From assembly GCA_964608585.1 (NCBI GenBank), contig CAZSOL010000001.1:75666-139665 (forward strand): a stretch of 64,000 nt of DNA. The letters are read 5' to 3'. Made by a program: the position numbers and the translations under genes. The notes beneath the pieces are model-generated. The model saw nothing but the letters and a program-made list of their open reading frames with translations. It made no database searches and was not told the origin of the DNA. Source of the DNA: an uncultured Candidatus Saccharibacteria bacterium (GTDB lineage Bacteria > Patescibacteriota > Minisyncoccia > Phycocordibacterales > Zambryskibacteraceae). Below, piece by piece: positions 6,163-60,682 of this stretch (the stretch's first letter is position 1; each line of letters begins with the position of its first letter).

Positions 6163-7715
6163 ATATTGCCGAAGTCGTAGGAGGATACATTAAACTCGAG
6201 AAATCAGGGATCAACTTCAAAGCCAAGTGTCCCTTCCATACAGAGAAGACTCCGAGTTTCTTTGTTTCCACCAACAGACAAGGCTACTACTGTTTTGGTT
6301 GTGGGGAGAAGGGAGACATCTTCACCTTCGTGGAGAAGATGGAGGGGGTAGACTTCAAGGAAGCTCTTAAGATCTTGGCGGATAAGGCTGGAGTAGAACT
6401 CAAAAATGATAGAAGTAGTGAGAAGCGAGATAACTCAAGACTATACCAAGCTCTTGAAGAAGCAACGAAATATTATCAGGAAAGGTTAAGACAAAATCCA
6501 GAGGCAGAGAAGTACTTGAAGTCCAGAGGCATCTCTGAGGAGAGTATAAAGAGTTGGAGACTTGGTTTCGCTGACGATGATTGGAGACTTTTGCGAACGA
6601 AGCTAAACTCTTTAGGTTACTCAGACTTAGAGCTCACTCAAGCTGGTCTCATTAAGAAAAGTGTTGAGCGCGAGAGTTCGGAGCCTTACGATGTCTTTAG
6701 GGGGAGGTTGATGTTTCCGATCTTTGACACTAGGGGAGAAGTGGTCGCCTTCTCGGGGAGAGCTTTGTCTAAGGATACAGAGCCAAAATACTTAAACAGT
6801 CCAGACACAGAACTCTTCAACAAAAGTGAGACTCTGTATGGCTTTGACAAAGCCAAAGAAGAGATAAGGAAGAAGGATTACACTATCCTTGTTGAGGGAC
6901 AGTTGGATCTTGTGCTCTCTCATCAGTCTGGAGTTAAGAATACAGTGGCCTCCTCTGGCACAGCCTTTACCCAAGGTCATCTTGAGAAGCTGAAGAAACT
7001 CTCTTCACGAATTCTTCTTGCTTTTGATGGAGATGAGGCGGGGATGAAGGCTTCGGAGAGGAGTACTCTCTTAGCTCACTCGCTCGGTATGGAGGTGAAG
7101 ATCGCTCAAATACCTAAGGGTTTGGATCCTGCTGACATGGTTAAGGAAGATTCAGAAAGTTGGAAGACTGCTTTGAGAGAGGCCAAGAGTGCGGTTGAGA
7201 CCTTTATAGAGTATGTTTTGTCTGTTGAGAGAGATGCCAATAAGGTTTCAAGATTGGTGGAGAGGAAGATCCTCCCCATCATTGCTGTGATGACCTCCAA
7301 GTTTGAGAAGGAGAATGCTGTATCTAAAGTAGCAAGTCTTCTTGGTCGAAGTCCAGCTATTGTAGCTGAGATGGTCTCTAAGATCCCTGTCCTTGGACAA
7401 ACATTTGGTCAAATACCAAGTGGGGATACAGCTGGTGAGGTAGAGACATTTAATGAGAGCCGTATAGAGAAGATAGAGAGAGAGCTTGCTACCGTGGAAG
7501 AATTGCAAAAGGACTTTGAGAAAGGGTCTAAGGAATACTCTCTAGCTCTCAAAAACAAGAGCGAACTTGAGAGTAACCTAAGAATTGCCAAGCTTGAGGA
7601 GAAGAGGGAGTCCTTGCTTGTAGATCTTGCGAGGGGTGGCGAGGCAGAGAGGCTACATAAGGAGATTATAGAGCTTGGGCGAGAGATAGATGACGAAAGG
7701 AGGAAATTATTGTAA
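6126..7715 (+). CDS. dnaG: DNA primase
   Basis: CHC2 zinc finger CPFHTEKTPSF...CFGCGEKGD; TOPRIM ILVEGQLD...LAFDGDEAG; overlaps rpoC 3' end by 37 nt. Confidence 0.9.
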   Translation: MGGNVEEIKQRLDIAEVVGGYIKLEKSGINFKAKCPFHTEKTPSFFVSTNRQGYYCFGCGEKGDIFTFVEKMEGVDFKEALKILADKAGVELKNDRSSEKRDNSRLYQALEEATKYYQERLRQNPEAEKYLKSRGISEESIKSWRLGFADDDWRLLRTKLNSLGYSDLELTQAGLIKKSVERESSEPYDVFRGRLMFPIFDTRGEVVAFSGRALSKDTEPKYLNSPDTELFNKSETLYGFDKAKEEIRKKDYTILVEGQLDLVLSHQSGVKNTVASSGTAFTQGHLEKLKKLSSRILLAFDGDEAGMKASERSTLLAHSLGMEVKIAQIPKGLDPADMVKEDSESWKTALREAKSAVETFIEYVLSVERDANKVSRLVERKILPIIAVMTSKFEKENAVSKVASLLGRSPAIVAEMVSKIPVLGQTFGQIPSGDTAGEVETFNESRIEKIERELATVEELQKDFEKGSKEYSLALKNKSELESNLRIAKLEEKRESLLVDLARGGEAERLHKEIIELGREIDDERRKLL

Positions 7716-7730
7716 AATATCCAGCTATTA

Positions 7731-8972
7731 ATGGTAAAGAAAAAAACCAAGAAGAATAAGGCCAGTAAAAAGACTAGCGTAAAATCGCGAGTCAAAAAGG
7801 TTAAGGCCAAGAAGTTGGTTAAGAAGGCAACAAAGAAATCCGCCAAAGTAGGAGGAGGCAAGAAGCTTAAGGCCAAGAAGTTAACAAAGAAAGTTACAAA
7901 GAAGAACCAAGAGCAAGACACAAAGACAAATCGTCTCATTGCTCGTGGTAAGGAGAGAGGGTTTATCACATATGACGAGATTCTTAAGGAGTTCCCAACC
8001 ATTGAGACCAATATCATCTTCTTGGATGACTTGTATCAGAAGTTCCAACAAGCAGGGGTAGATGTGCTTGAGGGAGGAGGCCTCTTGGAGATACCTACAT
8101 CGGACGATGATAAGAAGTTTTACTCCAAGAGTGACTCAGCTTATGACTCTATCCAGATGTATCTCAAGGAGATCGGCAGGTATCCTCTAATCTCCGGCAA
8201 TATGGAGAAGGAGCTTGCCAAGCGTATTGAGGACGGTGACGTGGAGGCAAGGAACTTGCTAGCACAGGCCAACTTGCGTCTCGTCGTCTCTATCGCCAAG
8301 AAGTATGCCAACAGGAGTCCTGACTTAACACTCCTAGACCTAATACAGGAGGGGAACCTTGGACTATATAAAGCCGTGGAGAAGTTTGATAGGACTAAGG
8401 GATTCAAGTTCTCTACCTATGCTACTTGGTGGATACGCCAAGCTATCACCCGTGCACTAGCAGACCAGTCTCGTACTATCCGTGTGCCGGTGCATATGGT
8501 GGAGACTATTGCTAAGTACAAGCAAGTTGTAAGACGCCTTACCCAAGACCTAGGGCGTGAGCCCTTGCCAGAGGAGATTGCAATGGAGATGAACCTTGAT
8601 GTAGAGAAGATCTATCAGATAGAGAAGATAGATCAGTCTACTGTATCCTTGGAGAGTCCGGTGGGGGACGAGGGAGATGATGGTAAGAGTAAGCTCGGCG
8701 ACTTCCTCGCAGACGACAAGATACTCTCTCCAGCAGAGGAGTCTTCTCGCAGAATTATTTCTGACCAAGTGAAGGAGATACTAAACGACCTCCCTCCAAA
8801 GGAGAGAAAGATTTTGGAAATGAGACACGGTCTTACAGATGGATATACTCACACACTAGAGGAGGTGGGCAAAGTTTTCGGTGTTACTCGTGAGCGTATA
8901 AGACAGATTGAGGCCAAGGCGCACGAGAAGATACGCCAACACGAGAAGATAAATAGACTAAGAGGATACTAA
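7731..8972 (+). CDS. rpoD: Primary sigma-70 factor with a lysine-rich ~65-aa N-terminal extension
   Basis: Region 2 ([14 protein letters not shown]), region 3, region 4 ([19 protein letters not shown]); dnaG-rpoD synteny; N-terminus [28 protein letters not shown]... Confidence 0.9.
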
Positions 8973-8980
8973 ACGTTGAA

Positions 8981-9009
8981 GCCCCGCACAGAATTTGTGC
9001 GGGGCTTTG
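8981..9009 (+). terminator. rpoD intrinsic terminator hairpin gccccgcaca-gaattt-gtgcggggc plus T-rich tract; core of direct-repeat copy 1 (8971..9016)
   Basis: Perfect 10-bp GC-rich stem followed by tttggttgtcttt; a near-identical copy occurs at 9484..9526. Confidence 0.75.
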
Positions 9010-9021
9010 GTTGTCTTTGAG

Positions 9022-9399
9022 CTATGCTTGACGCATCAGCTTGACGCTTGGGAGTGTGTTCTCCTCCCGAGGGATGAGACACTTGGCGAGCTCATCGCGG
9101 ATGATTCGCCGCACCTCGTTCTCGAGACCAGCTCTGATGAGGGGTCCGAGAGCTTCAGCGAGTTCGGGCCACACCTTCTCGTCCATGAGCCCAACCTCGA
9201 ACCCCCATTCTTGGAGATCGATCAGGCACTTCTGGATCTGGCCGAGAAGATGCATGATCAGGCCGTGTTTGCCGTTCCCCCTGCAGGTGAGACACTGGAT
9301 CTCCCACGTCATTGCTCTGAGTAGGTTTCGACCCGCCTCCTCACGCATCTGGGGGGTGGCGTTGAAGAACGGATTGTCCTTCGGCAGTCTGTCGCTCAT
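9022..9399 (-). CDS. Hypothetical 125-aa protein with one CxxCxGxG motif (CLTCRGNGKH); locally GC-rich cassette gene
   Basis: ATG at 9399 preceded by GAGGAG; upstream minus-strand TTGACA-18 nt-TATAAT promoter; about 62% GC in a 60-nt sample versus about 42% in adjacent rpoD; flanked by 45-bp direct repeats. Confidence 0.6.
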   Translation of the reverse strand: MSDRLPKDNPFFNATPQMREEAGRNLLRAMTWEIQCLTCRGNGKHGLIMHLLGQIQKCLIDLQEWGFEVGLMDEKVWPELAEALGPLIRAGLENEVRRIIRDELAKCLIPREENTLPSVKLMRQA

Positions 9400-9447
9400 G
9401 GACTCCTCAAGGGTTGGGGGGCGGAGCTTCGATGAACATCTACTTAA

Positions 9448-9477
9448 ATTATACTACACAAAATGTATTTTTGTCAA
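9448..9477 (-). promoter_or_regulatory. Near-consensus sigma-70 promoter for the 9022..9399 gene (-35 TTGACA at 9472..9477, -10 TATAAT at 9448..9453, minus strand)
   Basis: Minus-strand read: TTGACAaaaatacattttgtgtagTATAAT, 18-nt spacer, about 45 nt upstream of the ATG. Confidence 0.6.
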
Positions 9478-9483
9478 GTATAA

Positions 9484-9526
9484 AAACGTTGAAGCCCCGC
9501 ACAGAATTGTGCGGGGCTTGGTGTCT
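9484..9526. repeat. Direct-repeat copy 2 of the terminator-hairpin element (aaacgttgaagccccgcacagaattgtgcggggcttggtgtct); also the terminator of the minus-strand gene 9532..9780
   Basis: About 90% identical to 8971..9016 in the same orientation; together they bracket the 467-bp GC-rich insert. Confidence 0.7.
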
Positions 9527-9531
9527 CGTGG

Positions 9532-9780
9532 TCACTTTTTCAAAAATCTAGGGAGGTAGTATCCCAAGAAGAGGAAAAGCGTACCGGAGGCGAAGAGCAA
9601 GAGGGGAGCCAGCTCCATGTTGGGGATCGGACGGAAGATGGTTTCGATCCCTCTTACGATGATCAGCATACCGAATAGCATGAAGAAAAGGCTAATGAGT
9701 AGAACCATAAGACTCTTTGACACAGGTGAGCTCCTTTTGAAGTCTACCTTAATCATATCACCAAACACACCAAAAGTCAA
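9532..9780 (-). CDS. Small membrane protein (82 aa, two predicted TM helices), hypothetical
   Basis: Hydrophobic segments LMVLLISLFFMLFGMLIIV and LAPLLLFASGTLFLFLGYY; last gene of the minus-strand block. Confidence 0.5.
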   Translation of the reverse strand: MTFGVFGDMIKVDFKRSSPVSKSLMVLLISLFFMLFGMLIIVRGIETIFRPIPNMELAPLLLFASGTLFLFLGYYLPRFLKK

Positions 9781-9794
9781 GTATTAAAATAAGC

Positions 9795-11321
9795 CTAGAA
9801 TACTAGCCCAAAAAACTCTTTCCAAATTCTATACATAGCATAGGTGTCTAGCTTGCAGTACTCAAGCATCTCCTTCTCCTTTGCTTCTATTTCAGCTTTG
9901 CTTAGTTTGCCGGAATTTATCTTTCTGTACGAGTCAATGGCATCTGTACCACTCTTGACTCCAAGTTCTGCGTAACTTAGTTCTGGCACAAGGACTGGCA
10001 AGACCTTCTTGATAGATGACTTGCCCTTGAAGTCTGGATGGACGAAGTACTGCTTCTCCACGATATCCTTGAGGTCATAAGTTCTAGCTACTAAGTTTTG
10101 CAGGAAGGCGCTGTACTCAGGTACTATCCTTGCAAGTTCTTTGTTGCGACTGTTCTCAAAGGCTTTGTGCCAAGAGACCACACTGCCTCTCTCTCCAATA
10201 TTCTCTCTCAAGCTCTCCACAATTTTCTTTGATGGGTCACCTTCTAGGATTAAGCACTCCTTATGTATTGGCTCAGAGTCGGCTGACTCAAGAATGTGGA
10301 GTGAGTATTGGAAGACAATATGCTGGTAAGGGCTATACCCATCAAAGGGCGGGATGGGGGTAGGGTAGGTCTCGTAGTCTAGGAAATAGAGGGGGAATTG
10401 GAGAGTCTCAAGCTCCTCCCTTATCTTGTCTGTGTCAGCTATAGCCGAACCCTTCCTATAGGCCATTATTTGGCTCAATTTGGCCCCTTTTAGCCTATCA
10501 TCTACAGGGACGTCCTCTATGGATAGAACCCCCTGATCTATGAGTTCTTCGAGGTATTTCTTGCTATTGCCGATACGATTTAGGTCATGGACACTATACT
10601 CTGGTACATTGGGGTTTATGAGTGCAAAGGCGGTGCAGTGGGATGAGCGACCTTTGTAGTAACAAGGGCAGGGAGCCTTCGGTAGGTCTTCGCTACTTAG
10701 ATACTTATGGGCCTCTTCCATAAGAAGGGTTGCTTGGGGTCTTAGTGCATCTATGGCCTCAGACTTGTCTTCTTCTATAAATAGTTTGCTGAAGTCTAGC
10801 TCTCCGCGCCTTACATATTTTCGGTTTAATCTGATCAAATATTTTTTGTTCAGCTTCACACCGCATTCTTCTATAACGTTTGTTTGGAAGGCGAGATCGT
10901 GTTCAAACTGCAGTTCTTTCTTTTTGTTTATTCTGACTTCACCGTTCTCATCCTCTTCCTCAGATGAAGACATCTTTATTTCAAAAATGTCATAGGCCCC
11001 CGCATCCTCATTCCACTTCATAACATCCGCCGCTGCTAGATACTTGTCTGTAGAGAATACTGCTTGGAAGATGATTGGATGTTTTTCCGAGATCAGCTTC
11101 TGGGTTAGCTCTTGAGCCCCAGGGCTACGTCTTTCTACAAGGAAACCATTGGGGAACTTGCCCCGAGCTAACTCTTCTATCTCATTACCTTGAACGGCCA
11201 GAGATAGCTCAAATTCTGAAACTTCAAGCTTTGAGTAGTCTTCCTTCCTATGGTTTTTAAACCAAACATTGTTTGGGCATTCTCGGTAAAGTATGTAGTC
11301 AGTCTTAGAAAGTTTATACAC
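9795..11321 (-). CDS. DUF2779-family protein with an N-terminal PD-(D/E)xK (RecB-like) nuclease-type domain
   Basis: N-terminus MYKLSKTDYILYRECPNNVWFK; D..EIK motif (AAADVMKW...YDIFEIKMSS); C-terminal FLDYETYPTPIPPFDGYSPYQHIVFQYSLH matches the DUF2779 signature. Confidence 0.6.
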   Translation of the reverse strand: MYKLSKTDYILYRECPNNVWFKNHRKEDYSKLEVSEFELSLAVQGNEIEELARGKFPNGFLVERRSPGAQELTQKLISEKHPIIFQAVFSTDKYLAAADVMKWNEDAGAYDIFEIKMSSSEEEDENGEVRINKKKELQFEHDLAFQTNVIEECGVKLNKKYLIRLNRKYVRRGELDFSKLFIEEDKSEAIDALRPQATLLMEEAHKYLSSEDLPKAPCPCYYKGRSSHCTAFALINPNVPEYSVHDLNRIGNSKKYLEELIDQGVLSIEDVPVDDRLKGAKLSQIMAYRKGSAIADTDKIREELETLQFPLYFLDYETYPTPIPPFDGYSPYQHIVFQYSLHILESADSEPIHKECLILEGDPSKKIVESLRENIGERGSVVSWHKAFENSRNKELARIVPEYSAFLQNLVARTYDLKDIVEKQYFVHPDFKGKSSIKKVLPVLVPELSYAELGVKSGTDAIDSYRKINSGKLSKAEIEAKEKEMLEYCKLDTYAMYRIWKEFFGLVF

Positions 11322-38661: not shown

Positions 38662-39558
38662 ATGAGAATTGCAGTCCTTCGCGGAGGGCCATCCGAGCAC
38701 TATGAGGAGTCGCTTAAGACTGGTAACACGGTCTTGTCTATCCTGCGTGAGGAGCCGAAGTTTAGACCCTTAGACATCTTCATCTCCAGAGACGGCGAGT
38801 GGCACCACATGGGTAAGCCCTATGAGCCACACAATCTACTCAAGCATGTGGACTTAGTATGGAATGCTCTCCACGGCGAGTATGGCGAGGACGGCAAGCT
38901 TAGCCAACTCCTACATCAGCTAAACGTCCCATACACTGGTTCTACTCCTATGCACTTGGCCATGGCGATGAACAAGGATATGAGCAAGCGTATCTATGAG
39001 CAAAGTGGCCTACTAACCCCCAAGCACGAGGTACTCTTAGGTCATGTGTCGGAGGATGACCTTGTCAGGGTCTTTCGCAACTACTTGCACCCAGTAATGG
39101 TGAAGCCTGTAACTGGCCGAGGAGGTATAGGAATGAAGATAGCCCACTCCTTTGAGGAGCTCAAGGAGGCGGTGATACACGCCTTCAAGCACGCAGAGAG
39201 GGTCTTGGTAGAGGAGTTTGTGCGGGGGATAGAAGCTAGGTGCTCCGTGGCAGAGGGCTTCAGAGGCAAGAAGATGTACACCTTCCTCCCTATGCCAAAC
39301 GACCCGCTTTATCGGGCAGGCTTCAAATCTGATACACACAAGGAGATAGAGAGGATGGCCGAGCTCGCTCACCGCTCGCTCGGGCTTCGCCACTACTCAT
39401 CCTCTGACTTCGTTATAACCCCCAAGGGTAAGGTGTATATATTGGAGACAAACGCTCTTCCGTCTCTCGCCCCCGACTCGCATCTCCACAACTCACTTCT
39501 ACAAGTAGGTACCACCCCCAAGGAGTTTGTGCATCATGTGATTTCGTTGGTTGTGTAG
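38662..39558 (+). CDS. ddl: D-alanine--D-alanine ligase
   Basis: IAVLRGGPSEHYEESLKTG, HGEYGEDGKLSQLLHQLNVPYTGS and ATP-grasp features. Confidence 0.85.
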   Translation: MRIAVLRGGPSEHYEESLKTGNTVLSILREEPKFRPLDIFISRDGEWHHMGKPYEPHNLLKHVDLVWNALHGEYGEDGKLSQLLHQLNVPYTGSTPMHLAMAMNKDMSKRIYEQSGLLTPKHEVLLGHVSEDDLVRVFRNYLHPVMVKPVTGRGGIGMKIAHSFEELKEAVIHAFKHAERVLVEEFVRGIEARCSVAEGFRGKKMYTFLPMPNDPLYRAGFKSDTHKEIERMAELAHRSLGLRHYSSSDFVITPKGKVYILETNALPSLAPDSHLHNSLLQVGTTPKEFVHHVISLVV

Positions 39559-40227: not shown

Positions 40228-40809
40228 ATGAAGAAAAAGAAGATATTTATCCTACTTGGGCACCCAGACAAGGACACTCTTAACGGCACTCTAGCTAGTG
40301 AGTACGAGCGCGGAGCCGAGGAGGTAGGACACGAGACAAGGAGGATGAACCTAGGCGACATGCAGTTTGACCCCATACTCCACAAGGGGTACAAGGTTAT
40401 CCAAGAGCTAGAGCCAGACCTAAAGGCCTTCCAAGAGAACGTGAAGTGGGCTGACCACTTCATCATCTTCTATCCATCTTGGTGGTCTACTATGCCAGCT
40501 CTTCTTAAGGGACTCATAGACCGCGTGTGGCTACCCGGCTTCGCCTACCACTTTACCCACAACGGCAACTGGTGGCAGAAGCTCCTTAAGGGGCGCTCGG
40601 CGACTATGGTGGTGACCTCCGATACTATGCCTATCATTCAGAGGATTATGTTTGGCGATACGACTAACGAGCTTAGGAAGGGTATCTTGGGCTTCTCTGG
40701 CTTCTCTCCTGTGAGGGTATACAAGTTTGGCTACCTCAAGCACTTCGGCATGTGGGCAAGCGATAGGATGAAGCGAAAGGTCTACAGACTCGGCCAAAAG
40801 GCAAAGTAA
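40228..40809 (+). CDS. Flavodoxin-like-fold NAD(P)H-dependent oxidoreductase (FMN reductase / NAD(P)H dehydrogenase (quinone) family)
   Basis: KIFILLGHPDKDTLNGTLA...HFIIFYPSWWSTMPALLKGLIDRVWLPGFAY. Confidence 0.7.
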   Translation: MKKKKIFILLGHPDKDTLNGTLASEYERGAEEVGHETRRMNLGDMQFDPILHKGYKVIQELEPDLKAFQENVKWADHFIIFYPSWWSTMPALLKGLIDRVWLPGFAYHFTHNGNWWQKLLKGRSATMVVTSDTMPIIQRIMFGDTTNELRKGILGFSGFSPVRVYKFGYLKHFGMWASDRMKRKVYRLGQKAK

Positions 40810-60042: not shown

Positions 60043-60657
60043 TTGAATATCATGAAAATCGGACCAAAATTTAAACTAGCTAGACGACTCGGTGCCCCAA
60101 TCTTTGAGAAGACTCAAGGCCCAAAGTATGCTGCCTCTCTCTCAAGAAAGGAAAAGAACGATCAGATGCCTACTCGTCCTAAGTCTGAGTTCGGCAAGCA
60201 ACTCATAGAGAAGCAGAAGGCCCGCTTCTCCTATGGAGTGATGGAGAAGCAGTTCGCCAAGTATGTGAAGCAGTCTTTGGGTGCAGGAGACCCAACAGAG
60301 AGACTCTTCTATGCTCTTGAGTCTCGCTTAGACAACGTTATCTACAGAGCTGGCTTTGCCAAGACTCGTCTCCAAGCAAGGCAGATGGCCTCACACGGCC
60401 ACACCACTGTCAACGGGCGCCGTGTGACCATCCCCTCAATGGCCTTGAGGGAGGGCGACGTGGTTGGTGTGCGCGAGGGTAGCACCAAGAGTGCTCTCTT
60501 TGCAGGCGTAGACGAGCGCCTCAAGTCGGCTCCACAGCCCACTTGGCTTACCGTAAATCCAAATGAGCTTACAGCCAAAGTCACAGGTAGGCCCACCTAC
60601 GACAAGGCGGCTCAGGTATTTGATTTGGGGGCGGTTATCGAATTTTATAGTAGATAA
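60043..60657 (+). CDS. rpsD: 30S ribosomal protein S4
   Basis: KLARRLG, S4 domain LESRLDNVIYRAGFAKTRLQARQMASHGHTTVNGRRVTIPS. Confidence 0.9.
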   Translation: MNIMKIGPKFKLARRLGAPIFEKTQGPKYAASLSRKEKNDQMPTRPKSEFGKQLIEKQKARFSYGVMEKQFAKYVKQSLGAGDPTERLFYALESRLDNVIYRAGFAKTRLQARQMASHGHTTVNGRRVTIPSMALREGDVVGVREGSTKSALFAGVDERLKSAPQPTWLTVNPNELTAKVTGRPTYDKAAQVFDLGAVIEFYSR

Positions 60658-60682
60658 TTTTAATAATTTATTTATCAAACTT

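Follow-up and report, generated by a model that had tools for sequence, protein, structure and literature searches.

A small gene, orf125, lies between rpoD and a gene for a small membrane protein, in what is probably a hypervariable slot for a single gene, on a 64-kb stretch of DNA (the window, to which all coordinates without an L-prefix refer) from a member of the Patescibacteria, or candidate phyla radiation (CPR). Relatives of its rpoD place the organism among Zambryskibacteria-like Patescibacteria, and it is in a clade of this type that we recognize the slot. In the window lineage, the terminator module of the slot has been duplicated, with one copy (T1) now standing beside rpoD and the other (T2) beside the membrane-protein gene, and the leader that precedes the gene in its relatives has been lost.

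The duplicated terminator and the slot in relatives

The original prediction, made from the sequence alone, had described a duplicated terminator module on either side of a single open reading frame (ORF), and the duplication was confirmed. T1 (46 nt) and T2 (43 nt) show no substitutions and differ by three single-T run-length differences, with exact blocks of 25 + 13 nt. Both copies, differences included, were recovered in two independent Logan assemblies (L001 and L002, whose contigs both end within rpoD). Each has a perfect 12-bp stem (AAGCCCCGCACA/TGTGCGGGGCTT), and shuffling the window 100 times gave an expectation of 0 for this hairpin pattern. The folding energies of the two modules span −24.6 to −25.9 kcal/mol, with z between −3.8 and −6.7; T1 reaches −25.9 kcal/mol (z −4.9) on one strand and −24.6 kcal/mol (z −6.7) on the other. 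T1 on the plus strand and T2 on the minus strand passed a terminator scan, each showing, past a stop codon, a GC-rich stem-loop and then a T-rich tract, and both are thus predicted to be intrinsic (rho-independent) terminators. The hairpins had no match in Rfam.

An empty version of the site exists. In L005, rpoD is followed by a single copy of the terminator (T; 94% identical) and a homologous membrane-protein gene with no ORF between them, as the original prediction had anticipated for a relative. L004 also lacks a family ORF, and in several relatives rpoD directly abuts a DUF2779 gene. Since L005 and L004 are without the gene, it is an addition relative to some relatives. The single-T empty site and the lack of substitutions between the repeats would suit an autonomous miniature cassette of promoter and ORF that entered a single terminator, duplicated ~45 bp of target, and could be excised again between the repeats, perhaps after a small circle with one copy of T had integrated in Campbell fashion. 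The unit is also very compact (5 nt from the orf125 stop codon to T1 and 6 nt from the −35 box to T2), and its composition is atypical. Still, we consider this history quite unlikely in view of two further relatives that carry the gene.

L086, found through a look-up of protein P0004, and L092, found through the T hairpin in a scan of Joint Genome Institute (JGI) metagenomes, are the closest relatives at the DNA level, with 83–84% identity to the window over dnaG–rpoD. Each holds a family member in the same slot and has one T only. Homology between L086 and the window stops exactly at the rpoD stop codon (8973) and resumes at 9470, in the −35 box, and that of L092 likewise stops at the rpoD stop codon (8973). 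In a three-way alignment, the window, L086, and L092 have in common the junction of T with CAACGTTTT.ATACTTGACA, along with the T hairpin, the promoter from its −35 box through the spacer to the −10 box, and ~15 nt at the start of the transcript. After the promoter, L086 and L092 continue with a ~130-nt leader and then the ORF, whose terminator is of the family type (Tc; GAAGAGCCCACAG..CTGTGGGCTCTTC) and lies directly against the rpoD stop. T1 of the window, which begins at the second base of the rpoD stop codon TAA, aligns exactly to the position of Tc, and most of the leader is missing from the window.

A junction common to three lineages indicates that the contact between T2 and the promoter predates their split. 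T1 and T2 share a window-specific flank, TTGGT(T)GTCT (TTGGTGTCT), where L086 and L092 have TTTTGCTAG and TTTTGCTTTGG, so T1 was copied after the split from those lineages. We therefore read T1 as a recent intragenomic copy of T2. Because that copy came from the T2 of the window lineage itself and the relatives have a single T, T1 is not a target duplication made as a cassette arrived. The original prediction had taken the repeats for such a duplication, and this part did not hold: L086 and L092 are close relatives that carry the gene at the same junction with one T and no repeat structure, a finding that the prediction had itself named as refuting. The promoter that had been assigned to the insert is present in full, but it is common to these relatives and was not brought in by the gene.

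The notion of a mobile cassette fared no better. There are no terminal inverted repeats (9017–9030 does not pair with 9470–9483, and the hairpins are the only strong inverted repeats), a Pfam scan of the four neighboring proteins found no recombinase or transposase, and no second copy of the unit was detected in the 64 kb or in the JGI metagenome scan. Flanking repeats were also not found in a scan of family members in other contexts (L084, L085, L091, and L093; L094 lay outside the scan). The milder claim of a small acquired gene stands in part, as the composition is atypical and the allele does not appear to be a vertical ortholog, but the repeats are not the footprint of an insertion.

A family member enclosed by two copies of one hairpin is seen in the window and in L011 alone, and the second case would favor the cassette. 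The L011 hairpin, H, is a 33-nt perfect palindrome (CCCCCGTGTCAACCTGGCAGGTTGACACGGGGG) that occurs three times in 11 kb (6668–6705, 7327–7364, and 10775–10807). Copies 1 and 2 flank the family member, and the third lies between a TTGACA promoter and a small GC-rich ORF (about 10840–11052) with its own terminator. As this third copy is 3.4 kb away, H behaves as a dispersed palindrome, which counts against the cassette. It looks like a repetitive extragenic palindromic (REP) element tied to small GC-rich genes. T could by analogy be a REP-like mobile palindrome, with T1 having landed by rpoD independently of the history of the gene. The distribution of H, twice around a family member and once by a small GC-rich ORF, would be in keeping with this, as would the extent of T1, which comprises the whole inter-element module including its non-palindromic flanks. 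However, T occurs twice in the window, with no copy beyond T1 and T2, once each in L005, L086, and L092, and as a variant in L011, and the JGI metagenome scan found its hairpin on one contig only (L092). A random landing would also leave the exact placement of T1 at the Tc position unexplained, and we regard this alternative as very unlikely.

Divergence and composition of the coding part

The RpoD proteins of L086 and L092 are identical, their T hairpin, promoter, and leader are 84–100% identical, and alignment windows covering Tc and the 3′ end of rpoD reach 93–96%. Their ORFs share 42–72% identity in DNA and 44% in protein. By Nei–Gojobori calibration, the ORF has a synonymous divergence (dS) of 0.69 and a nonsynonymous divergence (dN) of 0.56, vs. 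0.20–0.39 and 0.002–0.008, respectively, in four flanking genes. The ORF dS values here and below come from 117 poorly conserved codons and are rough. With dN above the neutral background and a raised dS, diversifying selection and/or allele exchange is indicated rather than drift.

Across the family, alleles are 33–61% identical, and their similarity is incongruent with host relatedness. The L092 allele is nearest to that of L011 (61%; hosts 77% in rpoD DNA) and not to that of L086 (44%). Similarly, the window allele is nearest to that of L093 (47%; hosts 79%) and only 33–39% identical to those of L086 and L092 (hosts 89%), and no donor closer than 47% identity was found in the databases searched. 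These comparisons support the view that orf125 and the alleles of the nearest relatives are not vertical orthologs. On sequence evidence, the locus thus combines conserved flanks, divergent alleles at the same position, and incongruent relationships, as expected of a hypervariable replacement locus. Allele replacement in the window itself had also been argued from 13 four-fold sites; after the Nei–Gojobori calibration, we tone this down to suggestive.

Seven genomes of one clade (the window, L086, L092, L008, L093, L011, and L056) have a family member facing rpoD in convergent orientation; among 80 species-representative rpoD loci, just 3 have a member. The occupied slot in these seven would agree with a purely vertical history, in which the gene was always present and changed rapidly where it stood, with selection either relaxed or diversifying; gene conversion of Tc by the nearby T would have produced T1, and nothing would have been acquired. 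The homologous promoter in the window, L086, and L092 would also agree with this history, as would the window-relative ORF dS, which falls within the background range, and an ORF dN/dS of about 0.7–0.8. We nevertheless find this history unlikely. It does not account for alleles that are incongruent with host relatedness, for an L086–L092 ORF dS that is 2–3 times the background with a dN exceeding the background dS, or for the absence of the gene from L004 and L005, which lie among carriers. The family ORFs from hosts of 0.38–0.49 GC, or from contigs too short for a host value, also keep a GC content at third codon positions (GC3) of 0.64–0.90, in all cases but one (L090, 0.42). One member, in L056 (2583–2843, minus strand), is truncated to 86 aa, lacks the family motif LPxNNPF, and has a marginal leader match (E 0.11). 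This decaying copy is consistent with a dispensable gene.

The composition of orf125 sets it apart from its surroundings. As the original prediction had it, the insert is GC-richer than the host: its GC content, 0.582, tops the 64-kb profile (mean 0.460; z = 3.8), and its GC3 of 0.74 is above that of every other window gene (0.51 ± 0.06; ribosomal-protein genes 0.43–0.62). A codon-optimized native gene was rejected as an explanation, because the GC3 exceeds that of the ribosomal-protein genes and the codon usage fits neither these nor the bulk. The second-highest peak (60131–60659) is ordinary and corresponds to rpsD (60043–60657, plus strand; ribosomal protein S4; GC 0.51, GC3 0.56). Two genes identified by eye only, one D-Ala-D-Ala-ligase-like (38662–39558) and one flavodoxin-like (40228–40809), are mildly GC3-rich and lie beside two tRNA genes. 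Among the family loci, ORF GC is 0.53–0.58 in 11 of 13 (exceptions: L090, 0.45; L091, 0.49) and stays high whether the host is at 0.38 (L094) or 0.55 (L093). Unlike the ORF, the family promoter and leader are not GC-rich. Frequent exchange might account for this steadily high ORF GC, as might a constraint acting at the level of the mRNA.

Taken as a hypervariable slot, the locus would have a vertically inherited frame, composed of T, a consensus sigma-70 promoter right after T, a normally structured leader, and Tc at the rpoD stop, around a coding part that is exchanged or diversifies far faster than its flanks. In the window lineage, the segment from just past the transcription start to the rpoD stop was probably replaced or rearranged, leaving a divergent allele, orf125, with a truncated leader and a copy of T in place of Tc. 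T1 most likely arose by illegitimate recombination or template switching between two nearby hairpins, or alternatively by tandem duplication of an ORF–promoter–T unit followed by deletion. As a presumed bidirectional terminator, T1 would end transcription of both rpoD and orf125, and T2 would end that of the membrane-protein gene and shield the promoter from read-through. Because the leader is gone, orf125 would be transcribed constitutively.

Several points weigh against this interpretation. The bracketing of the L011 member by H could hint at a more general hairpin-linked insertion. The ORF dS estimates are imprecise, as said above. Between the window and L086/L092, the background dS is 0.7–1.7, near saturation, and the ORF dS of 1.1–1.5 lies within that range, so that for the window allele it would fit replacement and in-situ divergence alike. 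No intermediate of T1 formation was found, and the mechanism is not reconstructable from sequence. Finally, no match in the domain, defense-system, or structure searches bears on the function of orf125.

The orf125 family and its leader RNA

The ORF had been described as having no recognizable family. It has no Pfam, PHROG, PADLOC, NCBIfam, or PDB family match, but it does belong to a small family. An exhaustive HMMER scan of 1.84 billion representatives gave eight small relatives, a profile search gave two more members, and tblastn of the fetched loci added L008, L011, L056, and L092; 13 members were assembled. They are 114–152 aa long and share the motifs LPxNNPF..TPE, EFG.EV.LLDE, and AEAIG.LKRAGL. 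The family is undescribed, small, restricted to one CPR clade, and hypervariable. orf125 has the full family length and is a real gene, preceded by the predicted GAGGAG Shine–Dalgarno sequence. In the domain, defense-system, and structure databases, other family members gave only isolated, non-recurring single-member matches (best E 0.0018–0.0088). A word-indexed search with orf125 returned only orf125 itself, no relative turned up when viral contigs were scanned with a profile of the family, and a literature search returned nothing.

A structured leader of ~75–130 nt precedes 12 of 12 other intact members and is lacking from orf125. It comprises the nested helices P1 (GCUUA/UAAGC), P2 (CUCAC/GUGAG), and P3 (AUCC/GGAU), then P4 (CCCG/CGGG) and the Shine–Dalgarno sequence. 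A covariance model built from ten leaders (R1) recovered two further members on which it had not been trained, with E values of roughly 1e-19 to 1e-23. Searched over 884 kb including the window, it had no match beyond family genes and none in the window at E ≤ 1. In an alignment fitted to R1, which favors the following figures, 91% of cells are paired vs. 31–47% when the alignment is slid, and compensatory changes occur in 9 of 18 leader pairs, values that 0 of 500 shuffles reached. The leader is probably functional, since it has changed less between L086 and L092 than synonymous sites have. We regard it as a candidate new cis-regulatory RNA. One leader contains a hammerhead-like sequence (CUGAUGAG), which we rejected for lack of conservation.

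In L011, boxes of the GAGCCCACGG type (L011:6762–6781 and 7173–7192) are found within P4 of the 5′ leader as well as immediately past the stop codon, and the 3′ untranslated regions (UTRs) of L086 and L092 also hold one. The post-stop box adjoins the left arm of Tc, which is nearly identical to it in sequence. These boxes may pair the 5′ and 3′ UTRs or may be recombination boxes at the ORF borders. A broader possibility, though a fairly unlikely one, is that these CPR bacteria exchange small ORFs as cassettes without an integrase. The conserved promoter, structured leader, and terminator, together with hairpins such as T and H, would then serve as portable homology arms or as sites of recombination, and lineages would swap the coding part alone. 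In that case the leader would represent a new cis-regulatory class gating a conflict protein, and the loss of the leader and doubling of the terminator in the window would be a by-product of exchange.

An AlphaFold2 (AF2) model of orf125 (predicted local distance difference test score 88, predicted template modeling score 0.80) is a four-helix, helical-repeat-like bundle. The protein may be a cytoplasmic, helical-repeat-like binder. PDB profile matches to designed helical-repeat and armadillo proteins were set aside, as they reflect idealized helices. The CxxCxGxG and RGNGKH motifs noted earlier are present at residues 35–45, but the zinc-finger-type motif is not conserved in the family. A DnaJ-type zinc finger was rejected: CxxCxGxG forms a single unit (residues 35–42) in the loop joining helices 1 and 2 of the model, and homologs have PGxGE or other residues at that position, so it is not a family feature. 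A 2,696-aa giant glycosyltransferase-plus-repeats protein from outside the window (P0008) matches orf125 residues 58–96 in six stretches (E 2.5e-8). Helices 3–4 may therefore form a repeat module that recurs in other proteins; the match was otherwise uninformative. Because of the hypervariability, patchiness, and atypical GC3 of the family, we infer a possible role in genetic conflict, whether immunity-, defense-, or inhibitor-like.

The features of the locus and of its relatives are collected in Table 1. Away from the rpoD slot, family members lie among housekeeping genes. Within the window, residues encoded at 7731–7905 form a Lys-rich N-terminal extension of RpoD (~58 residues) that can be aligned only badly, if at all, with most relatives. 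The membrane-protein gene has homologs in L004, L005, and L086 and is itself very divergent, with 14–54% DNA identity between L086 and L092 in 50-column windows. Its annotated ATG (9756) is overlapped by a site resembling a promoter (9780..9752), and translation may therefore really begin at Met17. When the products of the flanking genes were looked up by exact match, only the same organism came up.

Table 1. Features of the rpoD slot in the window, family members in other contexts, and leader positions
Feature	Position	Strand	Basis
rpoD, primary sigma-70 factor, 413 aa, conserved left slot border	7731..8972	+	Pfam Sigma70 r1.1, r1.2, r2, r3, r4
T1, second terminator-module copy; stem 8979-8990 / 8996-9007, loop GAATT	8971..9016	.	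Repeat search, folding, alignment with L086/L092
orf125, 125-aa predicted four-helix protein	9022..9399	-	ORF, family search, AF2
orf125 5′ UTR, short, unstructured (z -0.16)	9400..9447	-	Folding; gap in L086/L092 alignment
Shine–Dalgarno GAGGAG, 3 nt before orf125 ATG	9403-9408	-	
Sigma-70 promoter TTGACA-18-TATAAT, consensus match 12/12	9448..9477	-	Promoter scan
T2, presumed original terminator module, 3′ end of membrane-protein gene; stem 9492-9503 / 9508-9519	9484..9526	.	
Small membrane-protein gene, two transmembrane segments, 74-82 aa, start uncertain, right slot border	9532..9780	-	
Family member between D-Ala-D-Ala carboxypeptidase gene (Peptidase_S11) and mraY	L084		
Family member upstream of rpsO	L085		
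Family member between amidase gene and def	L091		
Family member downstream of map	L094		
Leader	L086:3925-4027	+	
Leader	L092:6471-6573	+	
Leader	L011:7144-7247	-	
Leader	L008:6853-6952	-	
Leader	L084:3963-4066		
Leader	L085:546-645		
Leader	L087:313-411		
Leader	L088:181-268		
Leader	L090:692-789		
Leader	L091:1301-1395		
Leader	L093:506-603		
Leader	L094:501-600		

Significance and comparison with known systems

On its own, the duplicated terminator is a local rearrangement of modest interest, ordinary once explained. Its context is more useful: an undescribed CPR small-protein family with a leader RNA that matches no Rfam family, and a coding part that diverges 70–280 times faster in dN than its neighbors while the regulatory frame is conserved. 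In CPR bacteria, which are uncultured, most small genes lack annotation, and this locus is a concrete candidate for a gene of phage, host, or competitor interaction. The leaderless window allele offers a natural regulatory mutant for comparison.

The module T resembles bidirectional intrinsic terminators in its 12-bp GC-rich stem, its T-rich tails on both strands, its position between convergent genes, and its single copy in L005. Unlike shared terminators of this kind, it is duplicated in the window, with one copy on each side of an intervening gene. REP elements, bacterial interspersed mosaic elements, and miniature inverted-repeat transposable elements are dispersed palindromes that can double as terminators, e.g., the Correia elements. 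T is likewise a short, GC-rich, intergenic palindrome that is predicted to be terminator-capable, and H in L011 behaves like such an element. However, T is not dispersed in the sequence examined and has neither terminal inverted repeats nor short target duplications.

Integron cassettes offer another parallel, as a single ORF is bounded by hairpins and divergent ORFs are swapped in a constant frame. By contrast, T and Tc are simple perfect hairpins without the R″/L″–L′/R′ boxes of attC sites or a GTTRRRY core, orf125 has its own promoter, there is one cassette rather than an array, and the four scanned neighboring proteins include no integrase. Like cis-regulatory leader RNAs, the family leader has covarying nested helices just upstream of the Shine–Dalgarno sequence and is found only with the family; unlike known ones, it is outside the Rfam families, and it is missing from the window allele.

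Replacement-type flexible genomic islands hold divergent alleles between conserved flanks, as in the O-antigen and surface-protein loci of marine bacteria and archaea. The rpoD slot resembles them in its flanks (83–92% DNA identity) and its alleles (33–49% protein identity) among close relatives, in the incongruence of these alleles with their hosts, and in its presence/absence polymorphism. It differs from them in scale and content: the slot is a single 0.4-kb ORF, the frame around it includes a promoter, a leader, and a terminator, and the product is predicted to be a cytoplasmic, helical protein rather than a surface structure.

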